64,000 nucleotides of DNA from Candidatus Woesearchaeota archaeon (GCA_021735165.1 JAIPHP010000002.1:5491-69490), one strand, 5' to 3'. Numbered from the stretch's first letter, positions 1-49,431 are shown. Notes: a model not told the origin generated them from the sequence alone. Numbers and translations: made by a program.

Positions 1-315
1 CACTGCAACGTAGTATATGAAAATCGCAATTTTAGAAGACAATAACGAAGATATCCAAAAATACTACGAACACACAATAAAAAACCACAAAACAGACATA
101 TACATACTAACACAAAACAAAAAAATAACACAACAAATAATACAAAACATAAAAAACAACCACAACACAAACACATACACAACATTACAAAAAACACAAT
201 ACGACATAACATTCATAGACGGACTCAACGGAAACTGGAAAAAAAAACTACGACACAATAAACTCAAACAACAAAATACTGGTAACAGGAGACCTAAAAC
301 AAATACAAAAAATTC

Positions 316-1989
316 TCAATGAGTAAACCAAAAACTAAAATTTTCTTTATTATCCAAACGACAAAACCCAAACCTCTCAAACTGAACAACATCCCCAACA
401 GAAACATTTCTAACTAAAGGCTCCGCAAAACCTTTTTTAACAGACTTATCAGGCATCAAAACACTAACACTAACAAGATCCATATCCTTAGGCAAATAAT
501 GAAGCATACCAACACCACTTCGCCTATAAGTATCAATATCCTCATCAACAAACTCCAAAACAGAACCCGCCAAATACCTTACATTAAAACACTCCATAAA
601 CCTATACAAAGAACCTTCCTCTAACTCATTAAAATCATTTTTGGAAATAAAGAAAAAATCATTACTAACAAACTTTCGCTCACCACCCTTAATAGAAGGA
701 TTCAAATTCAAACTAAACTCCTTATGAGGAGCACCACTAACACGAACATCAACAGGAGAATCCACAAAAAAATACCTATTAGCACTCGCATCAAGCAAAC
801 GCTTATTATGTAAAATCAAATCATCCCACGTAAGCACAGGCTCATTCTTAGTAATCCCTGTACTAATAACAAAATTCTTGATTGCCTCAGCCAAAAAACC
901 CCTTCTTCTAAGAGCTCTTAGCGTAGTCAAAGAAGGATCATCCCAACCAATAAGTTCTCCTAAATTAACTTTTTCCCTTATAATTCTTCCTGAAGCCTCA
1001 ACACCTTTAAGATTAAACCTTCCAAACTCAAAAATATTAGTCTCATTATAACCTAACAAATTCTGCAAATACCTCTGCAACTCATTCCTCATCTCAAACT
1101 CCTTACTCCTAATCCTATGAGTAACCTTCAAGAAACCATCCATTATAGAATTCTGAAAATCATAATTAGGCCAAACCCTATATTTTTTGCCTTGTCGAGC
1201 ATGCTCCTTATCAATAATCCTAAAAATAGTAGGATCTCTCATCGTAGAATTCTTATGCTTTAAATCAATCTTTAAACGAGCAATAAAAGAACCCTGAGCA
1301 GACAACATCATCTCCGCCCAACGCTTCAAATTATCTTCAACAGACAAACCCCTACAAGAACAAGACTCGCCAGTCTCCCTACCTTTCTTAATTTCCTCAG
1401 GAGAACAATCACAAACATAAACATCCCCTGACCTAATCAATTTTTCACAATGACCATAATACAAATCCATATAATCTGAAGCATAAACAAGATCATCCCA
1501 CTCAACACCCAACCACTTAAAATCCTCCTGCATAATATCATAAAACTCGCTCCTAACAAGATCCGGATTAGTATCCTCAAACCTCAAAATAAATTTACCA
1601 TTATACGATTTAGCCAACAAATAATTAACAAGACACGCCTTTGCATGACCAATATGAGGATATTTCTCAGGACCTGGAGGAAACGCAGTAATTATCTGTT
1701 CACCCTCTTTAATATTAAGAAAATCAAAAATACCCCTTTTCTCATTCTTGTTTTCAAGAGCATCAGGATCAATTTCAAGCAATTGCTTCTCCTGAGACTC
1801 AAAATCCAAAGAATTAATTTCAGCAACAAGTTCATTAATCTTAGGCATTACCTGCTTTATCTGAGACCTTAAATCAGGAAATGTACCAATAACGCCTCCA
1901 ACAATAGCACCAGGATTAGCCTTACCATTATGCTTGACCGCGTTTAATAACGCCAACTTTTTGATCAACAATAAGACTTCATCATCCAT
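316..1989 (-). CDS. gltX: Glutamyl-tRNA synthetase, archaeal/eukaryal type
   Basis: 557 aa with a class I HIGH motif (PHIGHAKA) and overall GluRS architecture. The coding strand is unusually G+T-rich. Confidence 0.9.
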   Translation of the reverse strand: MDDEVLLLIKKLALLNAVKHNGKANPGAIVGGVIGTFPDLRSQIKQVMPKINELVAEINSLDFESQEKQLLEIDPDALENKNEKRGIFDFLNIKEGEQIITAFPPGPEKYPHIGHAKACLVNYLLAKSYNGKFILRFEDTNPDLVRSEFYDIMQEDFKWLGVEWDDLVYASDYMDLYYGHCEKLIRSGDVYVCDCSPEEIKKGRETGESCSCRGLSVEDNLKRWAEMMLSAQGSFIARLKIDLKHKNSTMRDPTIFRIIDKEHARQGKKYRVWPNYDFQNSIMDGFLKVTHRIRSKEFEMRNELQRYLQNLLGYNETNIFEFGRFNLKGVEASGRIIREKVNLGELIGWDDPSLTTLRALRRRGFLAEAIKNFVISTGITKNEPVLTWDDLILHNKRLLDASANRYFFVDSPVDVRVSGAPHKEFSLNLNPSIKGGERKFVSNDFFFISKNDFNELEEGSLYRFMECFNVRYLAGSVLEFVDEDIDTYRRSGVGMLHYLPKDMDLVSVSVLMPDKSVKKGFAEPLVRNVSVGDVVQFERFGFCRLDNKENFSFWFTH

Positions 1990-2011
1990 GGGCTAAGATA
2001 ACAAGGCAAGA

Positions 2012-2020
2012 TTTATAAAA
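2012..2020 (-). promoter_or_regulatory. TATA-like box upstream of gltX
   Basis: tttataaaa lies about 24-31 nt upstream of the gltX ATG at 1989, the spacing expected for an archaeal TATA box on a leaderless or short-leader transcript. Confidence 0.35.
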
Positions 2021-2129
2021 ACTTTGATTGTAAACAAGGAAAAGAAAAAATTCGGGCTATAAGCTCCAGTGGTTTCGTCCATTGGTACCAAGGTGGGTTT
2101 CCCTTTGGTCAAGCCCACACATACATTTT

Positions 2130-2261
2130 GGGCTCTTAGCTCAGTTCGGTAGAGCGCTCGGTTGGCATACAACGGTAAGCTGTGTTCAGAAATCATGACG
2201 CGGCCAGAAAAATTGTTGTCCAAAGATCGGGAGGCCGCGGGTTCAAATCCCGCAGAGTCCA
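2130..2261 (+). tRNA. tRNA-Ala(GGC) with a ~58-nt intron at the canonical 37/38 position
   Basis: Acceptor GGGCTCT/AGAGTCC carrying the G3:U70 Ala identity pair; D-arm GCTC..GAGC; anticodon stem CTCGG with loop TTGGCA, then an intron (2168-2225), then A-TCGGG; T-arm GCGGG-TTCAAAT-CCCGC; discriminator A. The exact splice junctions are uncertain. Confidence 0.7.
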
Positions 2262-2264
2262 GTT

Positions 2265-2540
2265 TTAGAATTCAGCTTGTAAGTATCGGGCATACTTTTT
2301 TTGATGGGATTCGTGAAGAGGTAATTTTTTCATGTGTTCCTCATAATTTTGTTCAATCAAATTGTAGAGACCCTCTTTTGCTAACTGTTTCACTAGGGGA
2401 GGCGTTCCATCAGGAATTATGCTACTGTATGAATTTGCTTTATCAATTGCTTCCTTAATGTTATCTTCCCACTCACCCATAATGCCTGCTTCTAAAAAAT
2501 CCATTCCATTTCCAGGAAAACTTAATCTGTTTTCCTTCAA
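2265..2540 (-). CDS. Hypothetical protein; possibly the frameshifted 3' continuation of the 2473-3102 ORF
   Basis: 91-aa ORF overlapping the upstream ORF by 68 nt in the +1 frame. A T6 run (ggattttttaga) sits at the junction. Confidence 0.3.
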   Translation of the reverse strand: MKENRLSFPGNGMDFLEAGIMGEWEDNIKEAIDKANSYSSIIPDGTPPLVKQLAKEGLYNLIEQNYEEHMKKLPLHESHQKKYARYLQAEF

Positions 2541-3102
2541 ATTTCTTAGGGTGGTAGAAAAAGTTGTCTATTTCAAATGTGTTTCCATTTATAAGAATCT
2601 CGTTCAAAAGATATTTTATTAGTTCTTTTTTCAAAGTTGGATATTTATAATCTTGTGCGTAATGAATATCATTATCATAAATATCTTCTTTACTTTCAAG
2701 CGTTTTATTTAATCCTTCCATTGATAGGACAGGAAAAATTATTTCATGATTAAGAAAAACAAATTCGTTCTTATGGTATAATGCGTTCACAAAGTCGTCC
2801 AGCATCATGCCAAATTCAATGTTAGCAGTCGATTCTCTTTTAATGCTCTCAATGTTCCACTCATGCTGTTCTTTTACACGTGTAGTTCCTTCTTTGAAAT
2901 CGGAAAGTTCATCTAATACTGATGCTAGAATTGGCGAAATGTGGATAGCTTCTTTTACACCTGGATTTGGTCTCCATGCAAGCAATCCTAAGTAGTTCTC
3001 AGGATATTTAAAATGATATTCATGTGCAAGAATAATCGCTTTCTCAACGTGTATATCTGCTTCACAATTATCCTTCTTAGATAAATAGATTTTGTCCCCC
3101 AT
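2473..3102 (-). CDS. Hypothetical protein
   Basis: 209-aa ORF with no recognisable motif. Confidence 0.45.
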   Translation of the reverse strand: MGDKIYLSKKDNCEADIHVEKAIILAHEYHFKYPENYLGLLAWRPNPGVKEAIHISPILASVLDELSDFKEGTTRVKEQHEWNIESIKRESTANIEFGMMLDDFVNALYHKNEFVFLNHEIIFPVLSMEGLNKTLESKEDIYDNDIHYAQDYKYPTLKKELIKYLLNEILINGNTFEIDNFFYHPKKFEGKQIKFSWKWNGFFRSRHYG

Positions 3103-3183
3103 GTATTAGCTAATCCCAAAACATATTTAAAATTATCTAATTTAAGCACTCTTAAGTGAGAAATGAACAGAAAAACTGGTTAC

Positions 3184-3257
3184 GGGCAAGTAGTTCAATC
3201 TGGTAGAATGCTTCGTTCGCAACGAAGAGATTTTGGGTTCAAATCCCAACTTGTCCA
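3184..3257 (+). tRNA. tRNA-Ala(CGC), intronless
   Basis: 74-nt cloverleaf: GGGCAAG acceptor with G3:U70; D-arm GTTC/GAAT; anticodon arm CTTCG-TTCGCAA-CGAAG; T-arm TTGGG-TTCAAAT-CCCAA; discriminator A. Confidence 0.9.
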
Positions 3258-3410
3258 TTTAGCCATCAGGCCACATTGCAGGAACTTAAACTCATAAGTT
3301 ATTCAGGCATACCATCCCCTGTAATACTCTGCAGTTATTTTCTTTGCCCAAGCACAAGAAAAACTCCTAGAATTATATCCTGAATATAAAAACAAATTAA
3401 GATAAATCAC

Positions 3411-3448
3411 TGTCCCATCTCAGTGACCTGTTTTAACTCCACATCGCA
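3411..3448 (+). repeat. Cassette-boundary motif, copy A
   Basis: tctcagtgacctgttttaactccacatcgca matches copy B at 30 of 31 positions. It lies immediately 3' of the Fic gene. Confidence 0.8.
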
Positions 3449-3456
3449 TGTATGTA

Positions 3457-4461
3457 TTAAAGAAATGTGTTCCAGTAATTTTCAACAAATTCATTTGCAC
3501 TAAATTTTACTAGAGCAGAATATCCATCTATACTTGAAGAATTTAAGTCAAGAATATCTGCTTTTGATAATGCATCTAAATATTTTTTTCTGTTCTTTTT
3601 TCGTATGATTAAAGGAGGATAATTATTTTGTAACAAAATTATGTTTGCAAGCAACCTTCCTGTTCTTCCATTACCATCAAAAAAGGGATGTATTTTTTCA
3701 AACTTGTGATGAAATATTGTTGCTAAAACTAAAGGGTGCAATTTATTTTTATGCTCCCTGAGCCATTTTAGAAGAAGAGTCATGTCTGTTTTTACATATT
3801 GTGCCGGACTTGATTTAAATCGAGTTTTGGTAACTCTAATATCTTGTGTTCTATAACCTTTTCGCACATCAATTTTGTCAATCAAAAGCGAATGAACGTC
3901 TTGAATTACGTCATGAGTAAGGACGTTTGGAATTTTTTCATAATACTTAAAAAAAACCACTCTTGTATTTTGTAAATCATATACTTCTCTAAGAGTTCTA
4001 TCTTTAGGAGTTTTTTGATTGATTAGTAAATTTTCTGCTTCCTTTAGAGTTATTGTGTTTCCTTCTAAGGAAGTTGTATTATAAGAAAAAGAAACTACAA
4101 AATCATTAAGCAATTCATCTTTAGAATTAATATCTAATTTTTGAAAAACGTTGTTCCAGTGAAGTTTGCATGCTTCGACAACATTTAATGATTCATCCAA
4201 ATACTGATCTTTTTTTAATTTTTCTTTCTTTATTTTTTCTAAATAATGGTTCACTTCCAAGAATTTATGAATAGTTTTGTAGGTTTTTCTTATTTCTTTT
4301 TGATGAATTTGTGGAAGGAGAGCTAATTTTTCTTTGATTTTTGATGGATTATTTCCTAAGTATGCTATGTCTTTTGTTATTTGTTTTCCATTTTTTGTTA
4401 AAGAAGCTCTAAGATAATAATATTCTTTATTTCCTATGCTTTTTTTATAAATAAATACCAT
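3457..4461 (-). CDS. fic: Fic/DOC-family protein (AMPylase), class II, with an intrinsic inhibitory motif
   Basis: Canonical Fic motif HPFFDGNGRTGR. An upstream TTSLEGN sequence matches the [ST]xxxE[GN] inhibitory helix. Confidence 0.9.
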   Translation of the reverse strand: MVFIYKKSIGNKEYYYLRASLTKNGKQITKDIAYLGNNPSKIKEKLALLPQIHQKEIRKTYKTIHKFLEVNHYLEKIKKEKLKKDQYLDESLNVVEACKLHWNNVFQKLDINSKDELLNDFVVSFSYNTTSLEGNTITLKEAENLLINQKTPKDRTLREVYDLQNTRVVFFKYYEKIPNVLTHDVIQDVHSLLIDKIDVRKGYRTQDIRVTKTRFKSSPAQYVKTDMTLLLKWLREHKNKLHPLVLATIFHHKFEKIHPFFDGNGRTGRLLANIILLQNNYPPLIIRKKNRKKYLDALSKADILDLNSSSIDGYSALVKFSANEFVENYWNTFL

Positions 4462-4495
4462 CTTTAATCAAGTATAATGTCTAAATATATAAATC

Positions 4496-4533
4496 TTACC
4501 CTTTAAATAGACGAATATATAAATAAAGGGTAA
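4496..4533. promoter_or_regulatory. Perfect 10-bp inverted repeat with a TATA-containing loop; putative operator
   Basis: ttacccttta - 18-nt loop (aatagacgaatatataaa) - taaagggtaa. Confidence 0.4.
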
Positions 4534-4563
4534 TTTGGTATTTTTGAATTTAAAAAAATTTAA

Positions 4564-4607
4564 TTTTTACCCTTTGTATCAACTTATATAAAAATAAAGG
4601 GTAAAAA
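4564..4607. promoter_or_regulatory. Perfect 12-bp inverted repeat of the same half-site with a TATA-containing loop; putative operator
   Basis: tttttacccttt - 20-nt loop (gtatcaacttatataaaaat) - aaagggtaaaaa. Together with 4496-4533 this gives two TACCCTTT/AAAGGGTA palindromes between the divergent Fic and MNT genes. Confidence 0.4.
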
Positions 4608-4623
4608 TTATTGTTATGTGACT

Positions 4624-4669
4624 ATCTCCTCTCAGTGACCTGTCTTAACTCCACATCGCAGAGTCCATC
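4624..4669 (+). repeat. Cassette-boundary motif, copy B
   Basis: ctctcagtgacctgtcttaactccacatcgcagagtccatc lies between the divergently transcribed Fic and MNT genes. Confidence 0.8.
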
Positions 4670-4776
4670 AAAAGTTTCGCTTTTTGAACGCAATCTCCAG
4701 TAGGGCATGAAGCCCTACGACGAAGTCTGTTTTACCAAAACATTTATATATCAAATATGGATAATATTAACCAAAT

Positions 4777-5352
4777 ATGGATAATAAGCTAAAAATTATT
4801 TTATACTTAGCAAATAAAGGAGAAACATTTACTTTGCTAGATTTAAGTAAATCTATCAATATACCCTACGCATCTCTTCACAGAACTGTTGCTAAAATGC
4901 AAGACACAACAGAAATAGAAAGCAAAGGGAAATCTAAATTAATTAAGATTAAATGGAACGAAATTACGAAAGCATACTTGACAATAGCGTCCTACGAAGA
5001 AAAACTTGAATTCATAAAAAAGCACCACATAATAAAAAGAATTGAAGAAAAATCTAAAGATATAACTCTAATCTTTGGAAGTTATGCCAAAGAAACACAA
5101 AATAAAACTAGCGATGTTGATTTGATGATAATTAACAAAACTGGAGAAAAAACAGTAAGTTTCTCTGATTTAGAAATGCTTTACGATATAAAAATAAATC
5201 CTATGTTTTTTACAGAAAAAGAATTCATAGATATGTTGAAGGATAAAGAAGAAAATGTAGGAAAACAAGCACTAAAAGCTCATATTTTGCTATCGGGATT
5301 TTCAGATTTTTGGAGGCTAGTTGAAAATGGAATTTATAAAAGAAAAATATGA
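4777..5352 (+). CDS. Minimal nucleotidyltransferase (MNT) antitoxin with an N-terminal wHTH domain
   Basis: The GSYAKETQNKTSDVDLMII sequence carries the GS...DxD nucleotidyltransferase signature; an N-terminal winged-helix-like segment precedes it. The gene overlaps the downstream HEPN gene by 32 nt. Confidence 0.75.
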   Translation: MDNKLKIILYLANKGETFTLLDLSKSINIPYASLHRTVAKMQDTTEIESKGKSKLIKIKWNEITKAYLTIASYEEKLEFIKKHHIIKRIEEKSKDITLIFGSYAKETQNKTSDVDLMIINKTGEKTVSFSDLEMLYDIKINPMFFTEKEFIDMLKDKEENVGKQALKAHILLSGFSDFWRLVENGIYKRKI

Positions 5353-5842
5353 AGAAAAATTTAAAGAACTAAAAGGACAACACTTAATAGTTAAATCAAC
5401 ATCAACTTTCAAAATAAATCTATTCTTTAAAAAAGCAGAGGCAAGTTTACTAATCGCAATAAATCAAAGAAATCCATCTAAAACTCCAGAAAAAATCTAT
5501 TGGCTACAATGGTCGATAACAATTGCGTACTACGCAATGCTTTATGCAACAAAAGCAATACTTCTAAAAAAAGGCTACGAAGTAAAAACACACGAATCAG
5601 CGCAAATAGCGTTAGGACATTTATTAGTGCCTGATGAATTAGAAAAAGAAGACTTAGAAATACTAAATCAAACTCATAAAATATTCGAAGATGAATATGT
5701 AACATATTTTGAAGACGCAAGAAAAGAAAGTAGTACTGCAAGATACCAAGCAAGACCAAGCTACACAGAAAGAAGAGTAGATGAAATACTCTCAAATGCT
5801 AAGAAATTCATAAATAAGATAAGTGAGATAATAAAAGAATAG
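5321..5842 (+). CDS. HEPN-domain protein, the toxin partner of the MNT
   Basis: 173-aa all-helical ORF overlapping the MNT gene in the classic MNT-HEPN operon arrangement, with R/H-rich C-terminal helices. The Rx4-6H motif is not crisply resolved by eye. Confidence 0.55.
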   Translation: MKMEFIKEKYEEKFKELKGQHLIVKSTSTFKINLFFKKAEASLLIAINQRNPSKTPEKIYWLQWSITIAYYAMLYATKAILLKKGYEVKTHESAQIALGHLLVPDELEKEDLEILNQTHKIFEDEYVTYFEDARKESSTARYQARPSYTERRVDEILSNAKKFINKISEIIKE

Positions 5843-5877
5843 GTGACTACAAAAACAGCCAAATGTAGACACCCAGC

Positions 5878-5926
5878 TGTCCCTTTGTTGTGACCTGTTT
5901 CGTCTCATCGTTCGTGTGAGTCCACT
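5878..5926 (+). repeat. Cassette-boundary motif, copy C (divergent)
   Basis: tgtccctttgttgtgacctgtttcgtctcatcgttcgtgtgagtccac shares cctttgttg.gacc.gttt...catcg...gag.cca with copy D. It lies between the 3' ends of the HEPN gene and the giant repeat-protein gene. Confidence 0.7.
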
Positions 5927-5952
5927 TAATCATTTTGGTATTTTTATTGGGT

Positions 5953-8900
5953 TTAAACTATGTAGAATTGTTGGTATGTGTAGTGGTATGGACTGTATGA
6001 GAAGGCGTATTCTTGTTTTAGTGTTATTTGAGGGTATTGTTGGGCGTTGATGAGTTCTTGAATTGAGCCTCTGTTGCTGTGTATTGTTGAGCTTGTTGGT
6101 ATTAGTAGAGAGGTGTAGCCTAGTTTTTTTACCATGGTTTTTGAGTATTGTATAATTTTTTTGTATAGGTTGTCTGGTGATACGCTTGCAAGGATACTTG
6201 ATGAGGGTTGTATTGATGCTATTAAATAAGTGTTTCCTTGTTCTTGTATGGTTCGATAGATTACTCCTCCGCACGCATTTTGTTCTTCGTCAAGTATTAT
6301 CATTAGCCACATATCTGGTTGATTCCATAGTTTGTCGTCTATTGCAACGCATACTCCGAAGTTGAACATTGCTACTGAGTGCATTTTGTGTTTGGTTAGT
6401 ATGAATTTGAAGGGTGTGCCTGTTAGGCTTCGTCCTTCTTTTTTGAATTCGAATTTTGTCATCTCTTTTTGCATATTTTCGTATTGTTCTCCATATAATT
6501 GATTAAATATTTGTTGTACTAGGCTTTTATCTATTATGTTTGAAGAGTTTTGTATTAGGAATTGGTTTATTTGATCTACGTCGATGTTTTCTGGCCAGTT
6601 AATCTCTTGGATGTTGAATCCTTTTGAGTTGATGATTTCTATGATTTTGTTTTCTTTGTTGTTCATGTTGGATTTCCAGATTCCAAAGAGTGTTTTTGCG
6701 AATTGTCTGTAATCTTTATTTGTGTTTGTTAGTACTAGGAATTCGTTTTTGTATTTTTCTTGTGCTTTTGATAACAAGGATAATATCAAGTCATTTCTTA
6801 GTCTGTCTCCTATGAATTCTTTGTATTTCATCAGCGTTTCATGTTCACTGCTAAAGCTTGGTAGTTGGTTTCCTAGTTGTATGTTGTAGGAGTATATGTA
6901 TTTTAGGTATTCTTTTTGTTTATTTCTCAGGTCTCCGTGTAGAAAGTCTGTTAGTATGTGCATTCCGGTTTCTGCTGGGTCTATATGTATTGGTTTTTGG
7001 TTGATTTCTGTTACTGCTTCTACAAGGTTGTTCCATGATTGAGTGTTTACTTCTTCTTTAAGTACAAAGCCTCCTTTAGATATTCTTACTGTTAAGCCGC
7101 TTAGTTTATTTAGCTCTCCAGGTATGTCACTTTGTCTGTCTTGCCTGTTTTGTATTGCTCGTTTATATTGTTGTCTATCTACAGTTACTTCTGGTGCAAA
7201 TACAGAGTATAAGGTGCCTAGAAGTATGTTTTCGTCATAATCCTTGGTCAAATTGCCATCTAAAATTTCTTTTTTTAATTGTTTTACATCTTTGAAAAGT
7301 TTTTCGTAGTGTATATGTTTATCTTCATGAGTTCCTATATAGATGTTTCTGAATTCTGTGTAGATTTCTAGTAGGTAAGCTGGACTGTTTTCAAGGAATT
7401 GTTTTATTATTTCTGCATCATGGCTTATTGGTTTTTGTATGATGTTTTGTTTCAATCCTTCAAGAATTAGGTTATGTAATATGTCTGGTGCTTTTCTTTG
7501 TTTTTTACTTGTAATCCATACTAATAGTTCCAGGTCTTTTTCGTTGTATACTCCTTCGTATTTGGCAATTCCTGAATAACACTCTATGCATATGAATGAA
7601 GCAGGTCCTTGTGATTCTACTGTAGGAATTATTAGTAATGGAAATGTCAATATTTTAAATCGATTAAAATACGGTAGTAGAAGCTCGAATTTACTGAAAT
7701 TTTCCCATTCCGCTCCTTTTGTTTTTTGTAAGATGTGTATAAAATATTCTGTTATTTTTGGTAGATTTTCTTCGTTGATCATATATTTAATTGTAGGCAA
7801 ACCCTCACAAAAGACCACTTTTGTATGTTCTTTTGAAGCTTTGACTATTTGTAATATGTGCGGGAGGGTTTTTTCATTGATTATTTCTTTTATTGAAGAC
7901 AAACCGTGCTTGAAGACGTGGTTTGTTTGATCTCCTGTTAATTTGACCATCTCTACTAAATATGGCAAAGTTTTTTCATTAAGTGCGGGTTTTATTTCGA
8001 GCAAACCATCATTAAAGAAACTGTGTGTTTCACTTCTTATGACCTTAGCTATTTCTACTAAATAGGCCAAAGTTTTTTCAGTAAGCACATCTTTTATTTC
8101 AAGCAAACCATAAAAGAAAAAACCGTTTTTTTCGTCTCCAGCGGCTTTAGATATTTCTGCTAAATAAAATAGTTTTTTTTCGTTAAGTATGTCTTTTATT
8201 TTATGCAAACCCCAATATTTTAAGAAATTAATTGAGTTGAATTTTAAGTATTTGATTAGTTCAGCTAGTGATAGTCCTATGGATAGTATGTTATTTTCGT
8301 TAATAATATTTTTTATTTCACGAAACCCAAACATAAGGACATGTTTTGATAACTCCCCTTCGGCTTTGAATAATTCTGATAGTTGTAGTCCTATAGATAG
8401 TACGTTATTTTGGTTGATTTTGAATTTTACATAATAAAAACTCTTGAGTACAGATTCTGCTTGGTCTCCTGAGACTTTGGCTATTTTTACTAGTTGTAGT
8501 CCTATTGATAGTAAGTTATTTTCGTTTAGTATATCTCTTATTTTAGACAAACCCTTTTCCAAGACTAAGAGCCTATAGTCTCCAGCGGCTTTTACTATTT
8601 TTATTATGTCGGGGAAAGTTTTTTCATTAAGAATATTTTCTATTTGATATGAACAAAAACTTATGACCTCTCCTGCTTGATCTCCCGAGGATTTTACTAG
8701 TTTTACCATGTCAGGCAAAGTATTTTCATTAAGAATATCTACCAGTTCAGGCAAATAATGTTTAAAAACAGATTCTGTTTGATCAACCCCCAAGGCTTTT
8801 ACTAGTTCTACTATGTAGGGCAAAGTTTTTTCATTTAATATCTCCCTTATATCAGGCAAATAAAATTCTAATACATGTGAGTGAATCCACAAGGATTTAG

Positions 8901-17861: not shown

Positions 17862-17899
17862 TTTTTTCTAGTAGATGAGTAAAGTATTTAAATATTTAG

Positions 17900-38859: not shown

Positions 38860-38900
38860 GCGTTGTTAGAAGTCTTATTTTTGTTTTAAGTTTTGTGTTT

Positions 38901-42163: not shown

Positions 42164-42409
42164 ACAAATCGTGAGACTTTTATCGTATATATAAAATTTA
42201 CTCATTGAACGCATCGTTCTAAACATTTTGTTCATACATCAATTATGATTCAAGTCTTTAATTTCGCTTCGTTAAGTAGACTAAAATATTCTAATTTATT
42301 AATTTAAAGTCTTCTTTTCCTTTGTAAATACAATCTAATAATGAATTCAAGTATTCTCCTAAAAAAAATTCTCTTCCAGACGCTTACTTTAAGACATTTG
42401 TTGATTTTA

Positions 42410-42565
42410 GGGTGTGTCTCAAGTCTTTCTTTTTCGTATTGCGAAATATTGTTAGCTGTTTTGCAGTCTAAGTTTTTTACCGAAGAAACACATATCTTTA
42501 ACGTGTTCCACGTTGTGTTTCTCTCAATTGAGCTCTAGGGCAATACAGATATTTGGGACACACCC
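42410..42565. mobile_element. MITE-like element with terminal inverted repeats, copy 1
   Basis: Terminal inverted repeats GGGTGTGTC...GACACACCC. The 9-bp direct repeat TTGATTTTA lies at 42401-42409 and again at 42566-42574, as expected for a target-site duplication. The element is ~93% identical to 59811-59963. Confidence 0.55.
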
Positions 42566-42610
42566 TTGATTTTAAAAAAATTTTTAAATATAGGTTGCGG
42601 GGGTCTTCAC

Positions 42611-42958
42611 ATGTTAGAGTTTTGGAGAGAAATTCTTGGAATTGCAAATGTTTTCATAGGTTTGTTTGTTTTGGCGTTTGCTATTCTTTTTTTAAAAAAA
42701 ACAGCTCCTATGAACGATAGAAAGCCCTGGGTGATTTTATTTATAGCAGTGATTGTGTTTTTCTTTTTTCAGCTTTGTAAAATGATTGGCGTTTTTTCTT
42801 TTGGCATTTGGCCTGAATTGAGTGATTTTCTCCAAACATTGTTTATTGGATTAGTGTTATATGTGTTCATTTTCCAGTTCCATTTAATGCATAAGCAAGG
42901 ACGCATCATTGTAAAATCTAAAAATTATGGCAAAAAATTAATGAGAAAGAAGGTTTAA
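42611..42958 (+). CDS. Small polytopic membrane protein, hypothetical
   Basis: Three predicted transmembrane helices. A TATA-like tttttaaatata lies about 25 nt upstream of the ATG at 42611. The ORF track extends the frame to a TTG at 42566 inside the element's target-site duplication. Confidence 0.45.
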   Translation: MLEFWREILGIANVFIGLFVLAFAILFLKKTAPMNDRKPWVILFIAVIVFFFFQLCKMIGVFSFGIWPELSDFLQTLFIGLVLYVFIFQFHLMHKQGRIIVKSKNYGKKLMRKKV

Positions 42959-43008
42959 TTTCGAAACTTTTAAAAGACGCTTATTTATTCTTATGTCAAT
43001 CACTATCT

Positions 43009-43080
43009 GCGCGAGTAGTATAGTGGTTAGTATACGGCCTTGCCAAGGCTGTGACCTGGGTTCAAATCCCAGCTCGCGCA
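43009..43080 (+). tRNA. tRNA-Gly(GCC)
   Basis: 72-nt cloverleaf: GCGCGAG acceptor, anticodon arm CGGCC-TTGCCAA-GGCTG, T-arm CTGGG-TTCAAAT-CCCAG. Confidence 0.9.
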
Positions 43081-43083
43081 TAT

Positions 43084-43189
43084 GGGCCCGTAGCTTAGCC
43101 TGGTTGGAGCGCTGGTCTTATATGACTACGTTTCACGCGAATAGCTCGAAGAGAGCCAGTGGTCGGGAGTTCAAATCTCCCCGGGCCCA
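43084..43189 (+). tRNA. tRNA-Ile(UAU) (probable) with a ~31-nt intron
   Basis: GGGCCCG acceptor; D-arm GCTT/GAGC; anticodon stem CTGGT with loop CTTATA, then an intron (43123-43153), then A-GCCAG; T-arm GGGAG-TTCAAAT-CTCCC. Anticodon TAT sits at 43119-43121, assuming the canonical intron position. Confidence 0.55.
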
Positions 43190-43197
43190 TGAATTCA

Positions 43198-43249
43198 GTC
43201 AAGGGTTTCAAAGATTTAGGTCTTTGTTAATCCTTGACTTGTTTTTTTA
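43198..43249 (+). terminator. Hairpin plus oligo-T terminator after the tRNA-Gly/tRNA-Ile pair
   Basis: gtcaagg - 27-nt loop - ccttgac, followed by ttgttttttt. Confidence 0.4.
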
Positions 43250-43502
43250 TTCTTTTAGCATTATTTCAACCATTCTTTTTAGTTTTATTCTTCTTTCAAT
43301 CTTGTTTTTCTTTCAGGTAATCTTCCAACTCCTTTTTTTATTTTTTTGTTATTAATACTGGCTTTGATCACAACATGCCAAATCAGTTGATAATTTACTT
43401 TTTTATATATTAATTTTACATTACTTAAGAACAAAACTAAAGCAGTACGTTGGCTTATTAAAGAAATAACTTTATAAATGGAAAGTAAATCCGTTGGTTT
43501 AT

Positions 43503-43577
43503 GCCCCGTTGGTGTAGTCCGGCCAATCATTTTGCCCTTTCGAGGCAAAGACTCGGGTTCGAATCCCGGACGGGGCA
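43503..43577 (+). tRNA. tRNA-Glu(UUC)
   Basis: The D-arm TGGTGTAGTCCGGCCAATCAT is identical to typical archaeal tRNA-Glu; anticodon arm TTGCC-CTTTCGA-GGCAA; T-arm CGGGT-TCGAATC-CCGG. Confidence 0.85.
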
Positions 43578-43860
43578 CTTTACCATTCAGGTCTTGACTG
43601 CGAGTCATCCGCTTCTAAGGTGCCTTTGAAGGAGTCTTTCTTCGACATCAATTTTTATATTATGAGCGCCTTTTTGTTTCTATGAAAAGAACTATTGAAT
43701 TAGATGTTGATAAATTTTAGGAGACTTCTTTTTTGTTCTTTTCAAAATCAACTACATATTGTTTTTTGGTTTTGCCTTTTCTTGCTCTAAGAAATGCTAG
43801 CTCTAGATTTGTGTAAGTAAATAGTTCTTCGTAAGAGGCGGTGCTTTTTTTGGTTTGTTC

Positions 43861-43870
43861 GGGGGGGGGG
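43861..43870. repeat. G10 homopolymer tract
   Basis: Ten consecutive G in a ~30% GC genome, in an apparently non-coding stretch between the tRNA-Glu gene and the Cys-rich ORF. Confidence 0.9.
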
Positions 43871-44039
43871 CGAAGTCAATATAAGATTTTGTTTGGAATA
43901 GTCAAGCCATTAGAACTAGGATACTTATTTTTCAAATAACGCTCGTAAACTATTTAAATAGCCTGTTTTTCTATGTTTTTAGTGACCTATCAGGTCTTTT
44001 AAGCAGAGAGGGCACTACATTTAATAAAAAATAAATTCT

Positions 44040-44339
44040 GTGCATGGAGGGAAGCATAAAATGGATGAAGATTTTAAATTAGGATGTTGCGGCGGTCATT
44101 GTCATGATGAAGCTTGTGGCGAAGATTGTAGTTGTGAAGAAGATTCTGTTGAAGATAAAGTTGAGTATGCTAATGATAAAATTGATGCTTTGATAAGATT
44201 GTTATTAAAAAAGAATCTCGTTACAGAAGAAGAAATAGAGGAAGTTTATTCTGAGGTTGTCGGCGAAGATTTCGATGATGAAGATGAATCTGAGGAACGT
44301 TCTTCTGATTCTGAAATAAAACAACCGAATAATTTATAA
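44040..44339 (+). CDS. Small Cys/His-rich acidic protein, hypothetical (possibly metal-binding)
   Basis: N-terminal CCGGHCHDEACGEDCSC cluster followed by a D/E-rich tail. Confidence 0.45.
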   Translation: MHGGKHKMDEDFKLGCCGGHCHDEACGEDCSCEEDSVEDKVEYANDKIDALIRLLLKKNLVTEEEIEEVYSEVVGEDFDDEDESEERSSDSEIKQPNNL

Positions 44340-44391
44340 AGAAAAAACAACATAACAATATTTATATATTGGTATACATAAAAGGTATATT

Positions 44392-45177
44392 ATGGTAACT
44401 GTAGCTCAAAAACCGGAAATGCAAATAAGAGCAGGAAAAAGAAACGAACAAGCAATTATAAACATCTTAGTAGATCAAGATGAATTAACTTGGCAAAATA
44501 TAATTATGGAACTTATTAAATCCGAACAAATGGATCCCTGGAACATAGATGTTTCAATAATCTCAGAAAAATTCATTGGTCTTTTATCAAACATGAAAAA
44601 AATGGATTTTAGAATATCAGGCAAAATAATATTGGCAGCAGCTTTTTTCTTAAAACTAAAATCGGACAAATTATTAAACGAAGACATAGCAGCACTTGAT
44701 TCTTTGATAAACAGCACAGATAATCCCGATGAATTAATGGATTTAATGGAAGACTTTCCCGATCAAATACATTTAAAAGATAAAAACAATAAACCAACAT
44801 TAAAATATCGAACACCACAACCAAGAAAAAGAAAGGTATCTGTATATGACTTAATTAACGCGTTAGAAAAAGCTCTAGAAACAGAACAAAAAAGAATAAT
44901 AAGAATAAAACCCACCCCAAAAATAAAGCGACCAGCAAAATCAAAAGATATGACTATAATCATGAATGATTTATACCAACAAATAAGATTAACGCTAAAA
45001 AAAGTAAAAATTGTATGGTTTCATGAATTATTAACAACCACCGACAAATCAGATAAAATAACGGCATTTGTGCCTCTGTTACACTTAGATACTCAAAGAA
45101 AAATAGATATTGACCAAAAATCTCACTTTGGAGATATAAGCATCTCTTTAACAGGCATCATAAAGGATTATAATTAA
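44392..45177 (+). CDS. scpA: Segregation and condensation protein A (kleisin ScpA)
   Basis: N-terminal DPWNIDVSIISEKFIGLL...ISGKIILAAAFFLKLKSDKLL matches the ScpA N-terminal winged-helix region. Confidence 0.7.
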   Translation: MVTVAQKPEMQIRAGKRNEQAIINILVDQDELTWQNIIMELIKSEQMDPWNIDVSIISEKFIGLLSNMKKMDFRISGKIILAAAFFLKLKSDKLLNEDIAALDSLINSTDNPDELMDLMEDFPDQIHLKDKNNKPTLKYRTPQPRKRKVSVYDLINALEKALETEQKRIIRIKPTPKIKRPAKSKDMTIIMNDLYQQIRLTLKKVKIVWFHELLTTTDKSDKITAFVPLLHLDTQRKIDIDQKSHFGDISISLTGIIKDYN

Positions 45178-45325
45178 ACTAATATCTACTCAACACACAT
45201 TTATGACATTCTAAAACGCGCCATAACACTAACTAAAAGCAATTATCTTTAAATTTAAATGACAATTTAACAATAAAGACCTATTAAAGTAAACATTTTT
45301 ATAAGGGTATTTTTTTCCAATAAAT

Positions 45326-46006
45326 ATGAAAACAAAGATAATAGATTTCCAAAATAACAGCAACATAGGTTTATACGCCTACGTAAATGACAACATCATG
45401 CTAGTCGGAAAAGACATTCCTGAAGAGTATGATGAAGAACTAAAAAACATTTTTCAAGTTCCAATCTGCAAAACGACAATAGCAGGAGCATCATTTATCA
45501 ACGTATTTATAATAGGAGATGGCAAAAAAATAATGGTTCCAAGCATAATATTTGAAGAAGAACTTCAAGAACTAAAAAACATGAATCTCCAAGTAGAAGT
45601 ACTTGAAACAAAACAAACATGCTTGGGAAACAACATAATTATCGCCAAAGAAAAAATATTAGTAAATAATGATTTTACAGAGCCTCAAATAAAAAAAATA
45701 GAATCCTTTTTTGAAAAACCTGTAATAAAATTAAAAAATTTAAATTTAAAAGCAATAGGATCCTTAGTCGCAATAAATCACGCAAAACAAAAAGCAATCA
45801 TAGGAAACGACATAACTGATGAGCAGTATGATTTAATGAAAAATTTAATTGGATACGAACTTACGCCTAGCTCAATAAATATGGGAAGTCCATACTTAAA
45901 ATCAGGAATACTAGTCAATGTCAACGGTTTAGCCGTTGGAAAAGCAAGCGGAGGACCTGAAGTTGCAAATGCAGAAGAAGCTCTTGGAGGATTAGACAAT
46001 GACTGA
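45326..46006 (+). CDS. eif6: Translation initiation factor 6 (aIF6/eIF6)
   Basis: 226 aa with the five-fold pseudo-repeat and SNIG/ILVN...G patterns of eIF6. It sits in the conserved archaeal eif6-pfdA-ftsY neighbourhood. Confidence 0.8.
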   Translation: MKTKIIDFQNNSNIGLYAYVNDNIMLVGKDIPEEYDEELKNIFQVPICKTTIAGASFINVFIIGDGKKIMVPSIIFEEELQELKNMNLQVEVLETKQTCLGNNIIIAKEKILVNNDFTEPQIKKIESFFEKPVIKLKNLNLKAIGSLVAINHAKQKAIIGNDITDEQYDLMKNLIGYELTPSSINMGSPYLKSGILVNVNGLAVGKASGGPEVANAEEALGGLDND

Positions 46007-46370
46007 AGACAAAAATCAAGAAGCAATAATGCAACAACTATACCAACAATACCAACAACTAAATGACCATATAAATAAACTAAACAATGCAAAAGAACAA
46101 TTAGAAAACACAAAACAAGCAATTGACGAATTCGAAAAGATACAAGGAAACGAAGAAATATTAGCACCAATTGCAAATGGAATATTCATAAACGCAAAGT
46201 TATTAGATTCAAAAAAACTAAAAGTAAATGTCGGCAGTGATTTAGTGATTGATAAAACAATAGATGAAACCAGAGAATTACTTCAAAAACAAGAAAAAGA
46301 AATAGATAAAAGTTTGCAAGACGCAACAACGAAACTGAAAGAAATAGAAATGATGTTTCAAGGAAATTAA
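45999..46370 (+). CDS. pfdA: Prefoldin alpha subunit
   Basis: Coiled coil, beta-hairpin (PIANGIFINAKLLDSKKLKVNVGSDLVIDKTIDE), coiled coil. It overlaps eif6 by 8 nt. Confidence 0.7.
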   Translation: MTEDKNQEAIMQQLYQQYQQLNDHINKLNNAKEQLENTKQAIDEFEKIQGNEEILAPIANGIFINAKLLDSKKLKVNVGSDLVIDKTIDETRELLQKQEKEIDKSLQDATTKLKEIEMMFQGN

Positions 46371-46372
46371 AA

Positions 46373-48124
46373 ATGTTCAAATTCTTAAAACAAAAACTAA
46401 ATGGCGTAGTAAAAAAATTCAGTAAAGAAGTAGAAGCAGAAGCAGAAGAGAAAAAAATAGATGAACTTACAGAAGAAGAAAAACAAGAATTAAATAAAGA
46501 AGATATTGAAAAAGAAAAAACGACTGAAACAAAAAAAGAAGAACTCAAAAAAGAAACCGAAAAAAAACAAGAAGATGAAGAAAATAAAAAAAATAAAGAA
46601 GAATTCGAATCAAACAAACAAACACATAAACCAAAAAAAGAAGAAAATGTTGACCTATTAGAGAGGGATGTAGCGCTTAAAAAAGAAGCAGAAGAAATAA
46701 CGACAGAAAAACCAAAGAGCAAACAAAATCTACAAGAAATTGCTCAAAAAACAAAAGAAAAAGAATCAAAAAAAATTGAACACCGAGTTGAAAAAGAAGA
46801 TATAAAAAAATATGAAGACTCAATAAAACCTGAAGAATCTAAAAATCAGGAAAACTTAAAGGAAATAGAAGAAACAGAAGAATTTGATGAAATCGAAGAG
46901 GACAATAAGAAAAACGAAGAAAAAAAGAGTTTCTTTTCAAAATTATTCAAAAGAAAAACAAAAGAAGAACAAAAAATAGACGAACTTGCAGAAGAAGAAA
47001 AACAAGAATTAAATAAAGAAGATATCGAAAAAGAAAAAACGACTGAAACAAAAAAAGAAGAACTCAAAAAAGAAACCGAAAAAAAACAAGAAGATGAAGA
47101 AAATAAAAAAAATAAAGAAGAATTAACAAAAATCTCAGAAGATAAAAAAGAAAAAAACATTCAAAAAACCGCAGAAAAAAAAGAAGAACCAGAAACAAAA
47201 AATCAGGACTTAATAATAGAAGAAATAAAAAAAGAAAAAAAATCATTCTTTTCAAAAGTATCAGATACATTCACAAAAGTACAACTAAGCGAAGAAAAAT
47301 TCGAAGAACTATTCTGGGAACTAGAATTAACACTACTAGAAAATAACGTGGCATTACAAGTAATAGATCTAATAAAAAAAGATCTCAAAGAAGAACTGAC
47401 AACGGGAAAACTATCAAGAAAAAACGTGTCTGAAATAATACAAGACACCTTAAAAAAAACATTAGACAAAGTGCTTACTGTATATCAAATAAACCTAGAA
47501 GAAGATATAAAAAAATCAAAAGCAGAAGGAAACCCATACATAATATCTGTAATAGGCATAAATGGTGCTGGAAAAACAACCGCAATAGCAAAACTAACAA
47601 ACAAACTAAAAAAAGAAGGATTTTCAATAGTATGGGCTGCAGCAGACACATTCAGAGCAGCAGCAATACAGCAATTAGAAGAACACGCAAACAAATTAGA
47701 AATAAAACTAATAAAACACGACTATGAATCAGACCCTGCAGCTGTAGCATTCGACGCAATAAAACACGCAAAAGCCAAAAAAATAGACGTTGTAATGATA
47801 GACACTGCAGGAAGAATGCATTCAAATGATAATTTAATGCAAGAGCTAAAAAAACTAATTCGTGTAAACCCTCCAAACCTTAAAATTTACGTCGGAGAAT
47901 CAATAACTGGAAATGACTGTGTAGAACAAGCAAAAATATACGATGCACAAATAGGTATTGATGCAATAATATTAACAAAAGCAGATACTGATGAAAAAGG
48001 CGGAGCAGCAATATCTATAAGTCATGTTACAGGAAAACCAATATTGTTTCTAGGAACAGGACAAAAATACGAAGATTTAGAAACATTTGATAAAGAAAAA
48101 ATTCTTGAAAGTTTGGGATTATAA
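46373..48124 (+). CDS. ftsY: Signal recognition particle receptor FtsY with a long acidic K/E-rich N-terminal domain
   Basis: NG domain motifs GINGAGKTTAIAKL, DTAGR and TKADTDEKGG, preceded by a ~280-aa KE-rich region that contains an internal direct repeat. Confidence 0.9.
   Translation: MFKFLKQKLNGVVKKFSKEVEAEAEEKKIDELTEEEKQELNKEDIEKEKTTETKKEELKKETEKKQEDEENKKNKEEFESNKQTHKPKKEENVDLLERDVALKKEAEEITTEKPKSKQNLQEIAQKTKEKESKKIEHRVEKEDIKKYEDSIKPEESKNQENLKEIEETEEFDEIEEDNKKNEEKKSFFSKLFKRKTKEEQKIDELAEEEKQELNKEDIEKEKTTETKKEELKKETEKKQEDEENKKNKEELTKISEDKKEKNIQKTAEKKEEPETKNQDLIIEEIKKEKKSFFSKVSDTFTKVQLSEEKFEELFWELELTLLENNVALQVIDLIKKDLKEELTTGKLSRKNVSEIIQDTLKKTLDKVLTVYQINLEEDIKKSKAEGNPYIISVIGINGAGKTTAIAKLTNKLKKEGFSIVWAAADTFRAAAIQQLEEHANKLEIKLIKHDYESDPAAVAFDAIKHAKAKKIDVVMIDTAGRMHSNDNLMQELKKLIRVNPPNLKIYVGESITGNDCVEQAKIYDAQIGIDAIILTKADTDEKGGAAISISHVTGKPILFLGTGQKYEDLETFDKEKILESLGL
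46457..46605 (+). repeat. Intragenic direct repeat in ftsY, copy 1 (~149 bp)
   Basis: Nearly identical (3 mismatches) to 46976-47124. It encodes IDELTEEEKQELNKEDIEKEKTTETKKEELKKETEKKQEDEENKKNKEE. Confidence 0.85.
46976..47124 (+). repeat. Intragenic direct repeat in ftsY, copy 2
   Basis: See copy 1. It is in frame and 519 bp downstream. Confidence 0.85.
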
Positions 48125-48215
48125 AAAACACGCCAATAAAAACATCCCAATAAACAATTTCACCACTAGACAAATTACCAAAACCCTTATTAATGATTAA
48201 ATACTCATCTTACTA

Positions 48216-49391
48216 ATGACAACTTTTTCCCATAGCAGAATATCTAGTTTTGAACAATGCAAACTCAAATATAAATACCACTATATTGACAAAGTCGAAA
48301 CAGAAATTGTTAGAACTATAGAAACCTTCATGGGCGATATAGTTCATCAAACCCTTGAAAAATTGTATAAAGACTTAAAATTTCAGAAATTAAATGAGCT
48401 GCAAGAATTAATAGAGTTTTATAACAATTTATGGATAAAAAACTGGGAAGATGGAATTCTAATAGTTAAAGAACAATACACAGCAGAAAATTACAAGATC
48501 ATGGGTCAAAAAATGATTGAAGATTACTATAAACACTATCAACCATTTAATCAAGCAAAAACTATAGGTCTGGAAACTGAAGATTACTATGAATTAAATG
48601 ATAAATACAAAATTCACGTAAGAATTGATAGACTTTCAAGTCCAGAACCTGGAGTTTATGAAATTCATGATTATAAAACAAACAGCAACATGAAAACCCA
48701 GGAAGAAGCTGATTCTGATAGACAATTAGCAGTTTATGCAATGGGCGTTAAAAAATTATATCCTGATGCTAAGAAAATAAAATTAATTTGGCATATGCTT
48801 GCATTTGACAGAGAAGTTGTAAGTGAAAGAACAAATGAACAACTAGATCAATTAAAAAAAGAAATTATTGAAGAAATAGAATTAATGCTTAAAGAAATAA
48901 ATTTTGAACCAACTAAATCTGCATTATGTAACTACTGTGAGTATCAGAGCATTTGTCCTTTATGGAAACATTTATTTGAACAAAAAAAAGAAGAAATTGC
49001 AGAAGAAACTTTAAATGGAAAAGATTTAGCAGACAATTATGCTAGATTAAAACAATACGAAAAAAAAGTTCAAAAAAAAATGGATGAAATTTCTGAAAAA
49101 ATAAAAAGATATTCTGAAAAAAATAATTGTAGAGTTCTTTTTGGCACAAATAACGCTTTGACTATTTGGTCTAAAGAATCAATTAAGTTTCCCGGAAAAA
49201 ATGATGAATTAAGAAATCAATTTAAGGAAGCTCTTAAAGGACTTAATTTATACGAAAAATATTTAGAAATTGATAATTGGGTTCTTGAAAAAGATTATCC
49301 TAAGCTATCAGATATTGATAAATCAGTATTAGAAAAATTTGGTAAAAAACAAACAATATTTAGGCTTTATTTGAAGGAACGAGATGTTTGA
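48216..49391 (+). CDS. Cas4/RecB-like PD-(D/E)xK nuclease with a four-Cys cluster (stand-alone)
   Basis: One N-terminal Cys (SFEQCKLKY); core motifs EIHDYKT and QLAVYAM; C-terminal C-x2-C-x5-C (CNYCEYQSICP). No CRISPR array or cas genes are nearby. Confidence 0.6.
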   Translation: MTTFSHSRISSFEQCKLKYKYHYIDKVETEIVRTIETFMGDIVHQTLEKLYKDLKFQKLNELQELIEFYNNLWIKNWEDGILIVKEQYTAENYKIMGQKMIEDYYKHYQPFNQAKTIGLETEDYYELNDKYKIHVRIDRLSSPEPGVYEIHDYKTNSNMKTQEEADSDRQLAVYAMGVKKLYPDAKKIKLIWHMLAFDREVVSERTNEQLDQLKKEIIEEIELMLKEINFEPTKSALCNYCEYQSICPLWKHLFEQKKEEIAEETLNGKDLADNYARLKQYEKKVQKKMDEISEKIKRYSEKNNCRVLFGTNNALTIWSKESIKFPGKNDELRNQFKEALKGLNLYEKYLEIDNWVLEKDYPKLSDIDKSVLEKFGKKQTIFRLYLKERDV

Positions 49392-49431
49392 TTTCAGAAA
49401 CCTTATAAATGATTAATTTTTATTAAATTGT

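Follow-up and report, generated by a model that had tools for sequence, protein, structure and literature searches.

Strand-linked compositional domains and abrupt polarity switches in a Candidatus Woesearchaeota chromosome

Replication-associated strand asymmetry, with strand-specific codon usage, is said to have been described in bacteria by Lobry in 1996 and by McInerney in 1998. The present study concerns a strong strand asymmetry, and the positions at which its polarity switches, in 64,000 nucleotides of a Candidatus Woesearchaeota archaeon (GCA_021735165.1, JAIPHP010000002.1:5491-69490; this whole stretch is called the window). Among bacteria, asymmetry accompanied by strand-specific codon usage is documented for Borrelia burgdorferi, Chlamydia, and Lawsonia (PMC2671203, PMC2089121). 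Among archaea, a survey found bacterial-type skew in 18 of 224 RefSeq genomes, all of them euryarchaeal, and beyond these in a single DPANN genome (PMC7111523). In Candidatus Forterrea, a DPANN archaeon, the cumulative GC skew is of the bacterial type and the origin adjoins cdc6 (PMC5905446; context in PMC7111523). Local reversals of skew have been traced to inversions or misassembly (Chen et al. 2020, PMC7111523), and stochastic fork collision, described in Sulfolobus, is the only mode of termination shown in archaea (PMC3020120).

The window resembles the Borrelia-type bacteria in having one G+T-rich and one A+C-rich strand, in a sign that ignores transcription, in the presence of the skew at four-fold degenerate sites and in intergenic DNA, and in codon usage and amino-acid content that split by strand. 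Unlike them, it belongs to a DPANN archaeon and changes sign sharply several times in 64 kb, not once each at origin and terminus; the comparison sets their two-arm genome pattern against 64 kb and fragments. With Candidatus Forterrea it shares a clear replication-type skew in a DPANN archaeon. There, however, a whole-genome origin-terminus pattern is centered on cdc6, whereas the switches in our window lie without cdc6 or origin recognition box (ORB) repeats and the polarity is split into domains. The phenomenon is thus of a known kind, strand asymmetry cut by rearrangement, and is unusually strong for an archaeon.

A strand asymmetry independent of transcription

The DNA of this genome that we examined comprised the window and about 1.5 kb to its left (Logan contig L055). 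Against a background of 31% G+C, Pfam matches included archaeal GluRS, AlaRS, Elp3, SepF, ZPR1, PTH2, eIF6, prefoldin, FtsY, TFE, Kae1, and Nre. Three proteins of the window, GluRS, ProRS, and eIF6, match NCBI entries of a Candidatus Woesearchaeota archaeon at 100% identity. The nearest relatives were the metagenome-assembled genomes GCA_021736975.1 (Tobar13m-G34; loci L001 and L004) and GCA_021735585.1 (L048), which share 70 to 83% protein identity with the window in conserved enzymes, evenly along its length. GCA_964548665.1 (loci L053 and L054) and the metagenome contig L007 served as more distant comparisons; further distant relatives (L005, L006, L008-L010, L025, and L027; 40 to 65% identity) were non-syntenic or weakly skewed. 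Polarity was measured as the + strand keto skew, (G+T-A-C)/N, as AT skew at four-fold degenerate sites, and as a synonymous-codon likelihood index. The index was trained on the synonymous codon usage of + versus - genes in the block at 5.9-44.3 kb and applied leave-one-out.

The + strand keto skew was -0.318 at 1-2000, -0.019 at 2001-5900, +0.159 at 5901-43000, -0.232 at 44001-49400, and -0.014 at 49401-64000. Its cumulative curve passed through a minimum at 5875 and a maximum at 44313, so that the sign changes which an earlier note on this DNA had seen by eye are present in the quantitative plot. At four-fold sites between 5.9 and 44.35 kb, the + strand AT skew was -0.42 for 16 genes on the + strand (1427 sites) and -0.34 for 17 genes on the - strand (2260 sites). 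The sign was opposite in GluRS (+0.77) and in five + strand genes at 44.35-49.4 kb (+0.38), and the skew of intergenic DNA matched that of four-fold sites in sign. These values bear out the earlier description of a + strand that is A+C-rich from 1 to about 2 kb and G+T-rich from about 5.9 to 43 kb whichever strand the genes occupy. The skew is thus tied to the strand and ignores transcription, which supports the argument made there that it is replication- or mutation-associated.

The same polarity governs codon choice. The codon index assigned an identical + strand polarity to 30 of 30 genes of the 5.9-44.3 kb block. Between + and - genes of that block, the share of ATA among isoleucine codons was 0.22 versus 0.79, that of GTT for valine 0.70 versus 0.21, that of AAC for asparagine 0.12 versus 0.46, and that of AAG for lysine 0.29 versus 0.07; codon frequencies of the two strand classes differ up to 6-fold. 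The strand effect is therefore strong enough to steer synonymous codon choice and, in part, amino-acid content. Three loci of the nearest relative (21.7, 18.4, and 11.8 kb) also show an asymmetry independent of gene orientation, with one sign throughout except in skew-neutral insertions. The asymmetry is real and highly significant, far beyond chance, and the bias is a property of the lineage, present in the nearest relative too. Since it is linked to the strand, present at neutral sites, and lineage-wide, we infer a replication-associated mutational asymmetry as its cause.

Maximum-likelihood change points, computed from third codon positions and intergenic sites, fell at 1936 (support 1927-1942; twice the log-likelihood difference, 2dlnL, 388-431), at 44315 (44309-44343; 2dlnL 518), where the keto fraction drops from 0.623 to 0.270, and at 48187 (48183-48515; 2dlnL 250). 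Polarity flips sharply at least three times in the 64 kb. The earlier count of two switches missed the third sharp step at 48.19 kb, beyond which the DNA up to 64 kb is almost without net polarity. The A+C-rich + strand that had been placed at about 44-49 kb is a true reversal, of lesser extent, as this block ends at about 48.2 kb.

These steps divide the window as follows. Domain A (1-1989), with a strongly A+C-rich + strand, contains ORF17 (17-322, +) and GluRS (316-1989, -), with codon indices of -0.85 and -0.93. The left transition zone (1990-5952) is a skew-neutral island with a codon index near 0 (HEPN, -0.49). Domain B (5953-44339), with a G+T-rich + strand, extends from a 1170-aa repeat protein (big1170) through AlaRS, Elp3, SepF, zwf-pgl-gnd, a P-type ATPase, PTA, an SLT protein, and a RecJ-like DHH protein to hyp99. 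It encloses a neutral sub-segment at 8800-10700, found with the sliding codon index, that spans the N-terminal part of big1170, hyp83, and a NUDIX gene. It also encloses the gene of a giant S8 subtilase/FG-GAP protein recognized by Pfam (32899-37140, -; 1413 aa; codon index -0.18). The skew-neutral stretches are thus those at 2.0-5.9 kb, 8.8-10.7 kb, and 32.9-37.1 kb. If the S8/FG-GAP protein was the giant repeat protein to which the earlier note attributed an A-rich coding strand, that attribution fails: the coding strand of this gene is not A-rich. Domain C (44392-48124, +), with an A+C-rich + strand and codon indices of -0.36 to -0.52, is an operon encoding ScpA, eIF6, prefoldin, and FtsY (Pfam). 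Domain D-E (48216-64000), whose regional polarity is about 0, contains PDDEXK, DUF1385, RTC, ProRS, AsxRS, Kae1, Nre, TFE, and a metallophosphoesterase.

Could such domains arise from an assembly that joined related, co-occurring genomes at tRNA genes or repeats? The window organism and a relative with an 81%-identical ProRS share one metagenome run (SRR12088349; L047, L049), which bears on any chimera or recombination scenario. For an independent check of the assembly, we used six Logan contigs covering about 24.6 kb of the window. Their breaks fall in tRNA genes or repeats (2232, 38299, 42523, 43548, and 59840), and positions 1034-2231 lack an independent contig. All six, however, are 100% identical to the window, and together they cross both the 44.3- and the 48.2-kb step and cover all of 47.8-59.8 kb. 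As the identity to the relative is also even along the window, we regard a chimera as highly improbable.

The left switch and the skew-neutral cassettes

Contig L055 extends the window 1,465 nt leftward and encodes a thermosome C-terminus (+), two small open reading frames (ORFs) (+), and a 56-aa ORF (-), followed by ORF17 (+) and GluRS (-). The four genes that it adds, on both strands, have codon indices of -0.65 to -0.97, so domain A reaches at least 1.5 kb beyond the window. The order GluRS, 56-aa ORF, ORF of about 85 aa, ORF of about 200 aa, thermosome is common to the window, L001, and L053, and the whole segment is flipped relative to AlaRS in the window as compared with L001. L001 has GluRS (+) and AlaRS (-) within a single uniform domain, at a distance of 9.5 kb. 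In the window both genes are on the - strand, 10.5 kb separates them, and a polarity switch falls in this interval. The coding-strand skew of GluRS is the same in the window and in the relative. Because a segment of conserved internal order has been flipped, the left switch, judged by gene order, is a breakpoint of a GluRS-thermosome inversion, and the inverted segment leaves the window leftward. The earlier suggestion of a rearrangement at the switches therefore stands for the left one, with the correction that the flipped piece is the GluRS-thermosome segment and not the DNA between 6 and 43 kb. The inversion may be recent, its skew being a relic, or it may have been neutral because it spans a replication landmark. 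The left switch resembles the reversals reported by Chen et al. in that a segment was flipped without losing its skew, and its breakpoint coincides with tRNA genes and an island.

In each of three genomes, no gene is biased more strongly toward G/T-ending codons than GluRS itself (+0.93 in the window, 316-1989; +0.87 in L001, 10001-11680; +0.54 in L053, 10001-11674). Since it is extreme even beside nearly neutral neighbors, this usage is a conserved gene-specific offset.

The genes between GluRS and AlaRS differ wholly from those in L001 and comprise two tRNAs, Fic, a nucleotidyltransferase/HEPN pair, the 1170-aa repeat protein, and NUDIX. The island, which was scanned with Pfam, contains hyp209 at 2473-3102 (-), Fic at 3457-4461 (-), the nucleotidyltransferase at 4777-5352 (+), and HEPN at 5321-5842 (+); no homologues of the genes at 1990-5952 were found in L001. 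The S8 gene, too, is absent between P-ATPase and PTA in L004. Neutral skew together with the lack of a counterpart in the relative is most simply read as recent acquisition, the local bias not having been acquired yet. Thus the left cassette genes, which make up about 4 kb of the gap, were probably acquired recently, and the S8 gene is probably a recent insertion. Its product also carries an I9 inhibitor domain and FG-GAP repeats. In contrast, the bacterial-type genes of the oxidative pentose-phosphate operon zwf-pgl-gnd (26761-29680, -) and of the SLT-domain lytic transglycosylase (38901-40139, -) carry the native strand bias and are therefore not recent arrivals in this DPANN archaeon.

Several repeated elements accompany the cassettes. 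A 40-nt hairpin motif, CACTGTCCCATCTCAGTGACCTGTTTTAACTCCACATCGCA, occurs at 3409-3448 and 4621-4660 and, more weakly, at 5876-5915 and 9942-9981, in direct orientation. It adjoins cassette-like genes (Fic, nucleotidyltransferase plus HEPN, and the 1170-aa protein), and the relative has a copy (L001 6121-6148, - strand) where its own skew is neutral. This motif may be a boundary signal of a cassette or mobile element. Comparison ruled out its being a tRNA fragment or an att-site duplicate. Two tandem palindromes, TTACCCTTT-N20-AAAGGGTAA, occupy 4494-4533 and 4567-4604, in an AT-rich spacer that separates Fic from the cassette following it. The big1170 gene (5953-9465, -; 1170 aa), which gave no Pfam match, has internal repeats of about 102-114 nt, and its polarity changes along this one gene, from +1.0 where the C terminus is encoded, by way of 0, to -0.5 where the N terminus is encoded.

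The right switch and the DNA beyond it

The right switch differs from the left one in that gene order across it is conserved. The order and orientation of P-ATPase, PTA, a hypothetical gene, RecJ-like DHH, tRNAs, hyp99, ScpA, eIF6, prefoldin, FtsY, and PDDEXK are the same in L004 as in the window. The polarity of L004 is uniformly positive, with no step between hyp99 and ScpA, whereas in the window the codon index drops from +0.40 (hyp99) to -0.36 (ScpA) across a 52-nt spacer. The step occupies 44309-44391, that is, the 3' end of hyp99 and this spacer. An unbranched Logan contig (L050), 100% identical over 43548-46499, contains it, and another (L047, 47815-59840) contains the step at 48.19 kb. 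Since both the order in L004 and contig L050 run across it, the right switch can be put down neither to an inversion breakpoint nor to a join made in assembly, unlike the reversals of Chen et al.

These observations bear directly on the proposal of the earlier note that the block between 6 and 43 kb was recently inverted and kept the skew of its old orientation, both switches being breakpoints. Such an inversion would account for the two sharp steps, which are opposite in sign and separated by about 42 kb, for the like sign of the DNA outside them, for the synteny breakpoint at the left step, and for the tRNA genes and repeats near both steps. However, only the left end of the block is a breakpoint; the right junction, RecJ-tRNA-hyp99-ScpA, is the same in L004 under uniform polarity. 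No inverted repeat beyond chance links the two switch zones, the best short match having E = 0.04. Furthermore, five orthologues of block B do not differ from the relative (pooled four-fold AT skew, -0.07 ± 0.07), whereas domains C to E do differ, with old shifts at the amino-acid level, and the DNA past 48.2 kb does not have the polarity of a flank. We therefore consider this inversion very unlikely.

The tRNA genes and repeats near the switches had also been put forward as recombination substrates. They are indeed found near both, but the sequence shared between the zones amounts to a T-arm of 13-15 nt. Rfam detected seven tRNA genes, four of them intron-bearing (2130-2261, +; 38204-38324, -; 42055-42163, -; 43084-43189, +), and ARAGORN detected the three others, namely tRNA-Ala CGC (3184-3257, +), tRNA-Gly GCC (43009-43080, +), and tRNA-Glu UUC (43503-43577, +). 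Contrary to the earlier statement that the tRNA genes of the two edges lie on opposite strands, the two on the left and the three nearest the right switch are all on the + strand, and of the edge genes only that at 42055-42163 is on the - strand. The cluster left of the right switch (42055-43577) combines Rfam tRNAs with one copy of a direct repeat of about 190 nt, the element once likened to a miniature inverted-repeat transposable element. Its two copies (42396-42586 and 59796-59985) are 85-89% identical and 17.4 kb apart, and Logan contigs break within both.

Right of the step, the ScpA-FtsY operon has a pooled four-fold AT skew of +0.53 in the window and -0.16 in the relative, a difference of +0.69 ± 0.075. 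One explanation is that recombination, by replacement or by re-insertion in place, gave the operon (44.39-48.19 kb) its present copy, which had evolved under opposite polarity, the weak polarity farther right being a separate matter. The sharp steps at both operon boundaries would fit, as would the right end, where a 117-119-aa minus-strand ORF separates FtsY from PDDEXK in L004 (16658-17011) and L007 (4916-5275). In its place the window has a 91-nt A+C-rich spacer (48125-48215), exactly at the third step. The eIF6 of the window is an outlier (53% and 58% identity, versus 64% between L004 and L007), prefoldin identity is low, and homologous recombination is documented in DPANN populations (PMC5905446). 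On the other side, ScpA (75%) and the FtsY GTPase domain (80%) match the relative no less closely than the flanking genes do. A search of 5.8 billion proteins revealed no closer lineage for eIF6; its best non-self match was at 57%, and the relative was among the top matches. A donor diverged enough to carry reversed skew would offer no homologous flanks, and the genes farther right are shifted too. On balance, replacement of the operon appears unlikely. No repeats were seen at its borders. As a separate observation, the lysine/glutamate-rich N-terminal region of FtsY is internally duplicated (46444-46638 and 46963-47157; 195 nt, 89% identical, 519 nt apart), and it is 37-42% identical among relatives versus 80% for the GTPase domain.

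The shift relative to the relative continues past the operon. The D-E genes differ by +0.44 ± 0.047 in pooled four-fold AT skew, and 13 of 13 orthologues right of 44.3 kb, three of them on the - strand, have moved in one direction. In a comparison that left out the P-ATPase row, the first and second codon positions of genes right of the step were found to have moved in this direction too, by some 25-70% of the equilibrium ratio. The difference thus goes back far enough for the proteins themselves to have changed. The order metallophosphoesterase-TFE-Nre-hyp-Kae1-(hyp)-AsxRS-ProRS is kept in L048 and L054. Window, L048, and L054 also share a gene-to-gene pattern, with TFE, metallophosphoesterase, and ProRS low and Nre and Kae1 high, while the regional level is near +0.5 for L048 and near 0 for L054. 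The same pattern on different regional levels indicates that the patches at 48-64 kb are gene-specific offsets on a regional polarity of about 0. A reading of this region as a patchwork, with at least six polarity domains in all, does not hold, as the two other genomes show the same pattern. Beyond about 62.9 kb, synteny with the relatives is lost, and the Lhr helicase that follows metallophosphoesterase in L048 and L054 gave no tblastn match in window positions 62883-64000.

Might gene- or expression-specific codon choice, or transcription-linked mutation, suffice to explain the whole pattern? Offsets are conserved in three genomes, with TFE, metallophosphoesterase, ProRS, eIF6, prefoldin, and FtsY leaning toward A/C-ending codons and GluRS of the extreme G/T type everywhere, and they account for the patches at 48-64 kb. 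Nevertheless, genes on opposite strands share the + strand skew in block B, in domain A, and in the three loci of the relative, intergenic DNA follows it, and genes on either strand take part in the shift right of 44.3 kb. As the sole cause, such effects are hardly credible.

Replication landmarks and the meaning of the bias

The earlier note had also raised a nearby replication origin or terminus and had advised looking for orc1/cdc6 and ORB repeats at the switches. Pfam gave no match to orc1/cdc6 or a Cdt1-like initiator among the 60 ORFs of the window, and none to an integrase or Xer protein. ORB-like patterns (TCCANTGGAAA and TACANTTGAAA taken as consensus, one mismatch allowed) occurred at or below chance frequency and formed no cluster in the switch zones. 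The repeats of the left island are the direct 40-nt hairpin motifs and not an ORB cluster, and a promoter/terminator scan returned counts equal to those of shuffled sequences. The cumulative-skew minimum is a plateau at 2.0-5.9 kb with an origin-like sign, which an inversion breakpoint would equally produce. At 44315, a terminus-type sign change is present without local rearrangement. Full reverse polarity is not kept beyond it; only 44.39-48.19 kb is clearly reversed. Of the earlier pair, then, a terminus-type boundary is the best available reading of the right switch, with a convergence of forks at 44.3 kb, present or past, as its suggested basis. Any origin or terminus here would be putative.

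New chromosomal origins in archaea have reportedly arisen through capture of extrachromosomal elements (Robinson and Bell, in 2007). Like a captured origin, the left sign change is of the origin type and lies in a foreign-looking cassette island beside tRNA genes; unlike one, the island contains no initiator gene, ORB, or integrase as judged by Pfam scans and the ORB pattern search. Both switches could still be active landmarks. The tRNA/cassette island at 2-6 kb would then hold an origin, which may have come in with an integrated element, and forks would meet a sequence-specific barrier or terminus at 44.3 kb. The signs would suit (- to + on the left, terminus-type on the right), domains A and B are both at full strength without decay, the steps are sharp as a barrier would make them, and tRNA genes, at which the island lies, are typical targets of integration. 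Set against this are the missing initiator and ORB-like cluster, the polarity of about 0 past 48.2 kb where full reversal would be expected, and the inversion of segment A as compared with the relative, for which an origin by itself gives no explanation. In addition, we know of no fork-trap system in archaea. We hold this arrangement to be distinctly unlikely. Its more specific form is quite improbable, in which a barrier or terminus beside the tRNA cluster, paired with the origin at 2-6 kb, leaves a short arm of about 40 kb while the other fork copies nearly the whole chromosome. If true, this would make the barrier the first site of programmed termination observed in an archaeon.

The explanation that we favor, with about even confidence, is a replication-linked mutational asymmetry whose domains were cut by one inversion and one terminus-type boundary. 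Replication-dependent substitutions would enrich one strand in G and T and the other in A and C in this woesearchaeal (DPANN) chromosome. In the 38-kb domain at 5.95-44.3 kb, the G+T-rich + strand would be the leading strand, by analogy with bacteria and Euryarchaeota. Inversion of the thermosome-GluRS segment relative to the AlaRS block would have produced the left switch. About 4 kb of the gap, beside two tRNA genes, would consist of skew-neutral cassette genes, probably acquired recently, with a second neutral stretch at 8.8-10.7 kb. Right of 44.3 kb, forks in this lineage would long have moved the opposite way through ScpA-FtsY and in mixed directions through 48-64 kb, making 44.3 kb a fork-convergence, terminus-type boundary absent from the nearest relative. 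As in Sulfolobus, the sign change is of the terminus type and no Tus/Ter-like system is evident. Unlike the broad gradient predicted from stochastic collision, however, the step in the window is less than about 40 nt wide and a second one follows 3.9 kb on.

This last difference belongs to several points that weigh against our explanation. The steps are tens of bases wide, where free fork collision would be expected to give a gradient, and our explanation does not account for the sharpness of the boundary at 44.3 kb. Polarity right of 44.3 kb is non-monotonic, as ScpA-FtsY is more shifted than the genes beyond it. Together with the second sharp step at 48.19 kb, this is rather what one would expect of a replaced or re-inserted segment. 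Domain C has its four genes on a single strand, so an operon-specific component may contribute there. No orc1/cdc6 gene or ORB cluster is tied to any boundary, the join of domain A to the rest (1034-2231, across a tRNA gene) lies outside the independent contigs fetched, and the equation of the G+T-rich strand with the leading strand is an assumption by analogy, not a calibration. Only one element, the sharp 44.3-kb step amid conserved gene order, falls outside what current models predict.

Strong strand asymmetry is a textbook feature of a few bacteria and is hardly documented in archaea. Since amino-acid content shifts too, binning by codon usage or composition, detection of horizontal gene transfer, and phylogeny in these genomes will be misled if the strand effect is ignored. 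In an unculturable lineage, the bias also preserves traces of the direction of replication and of recent changes in the genome. Insertions can be dated by it, among them the S8 protease and the cassette island, and inversions stand out, as that of the GluRS-thermosome segment does; given whole-genome maps, it can locate origins and termini.

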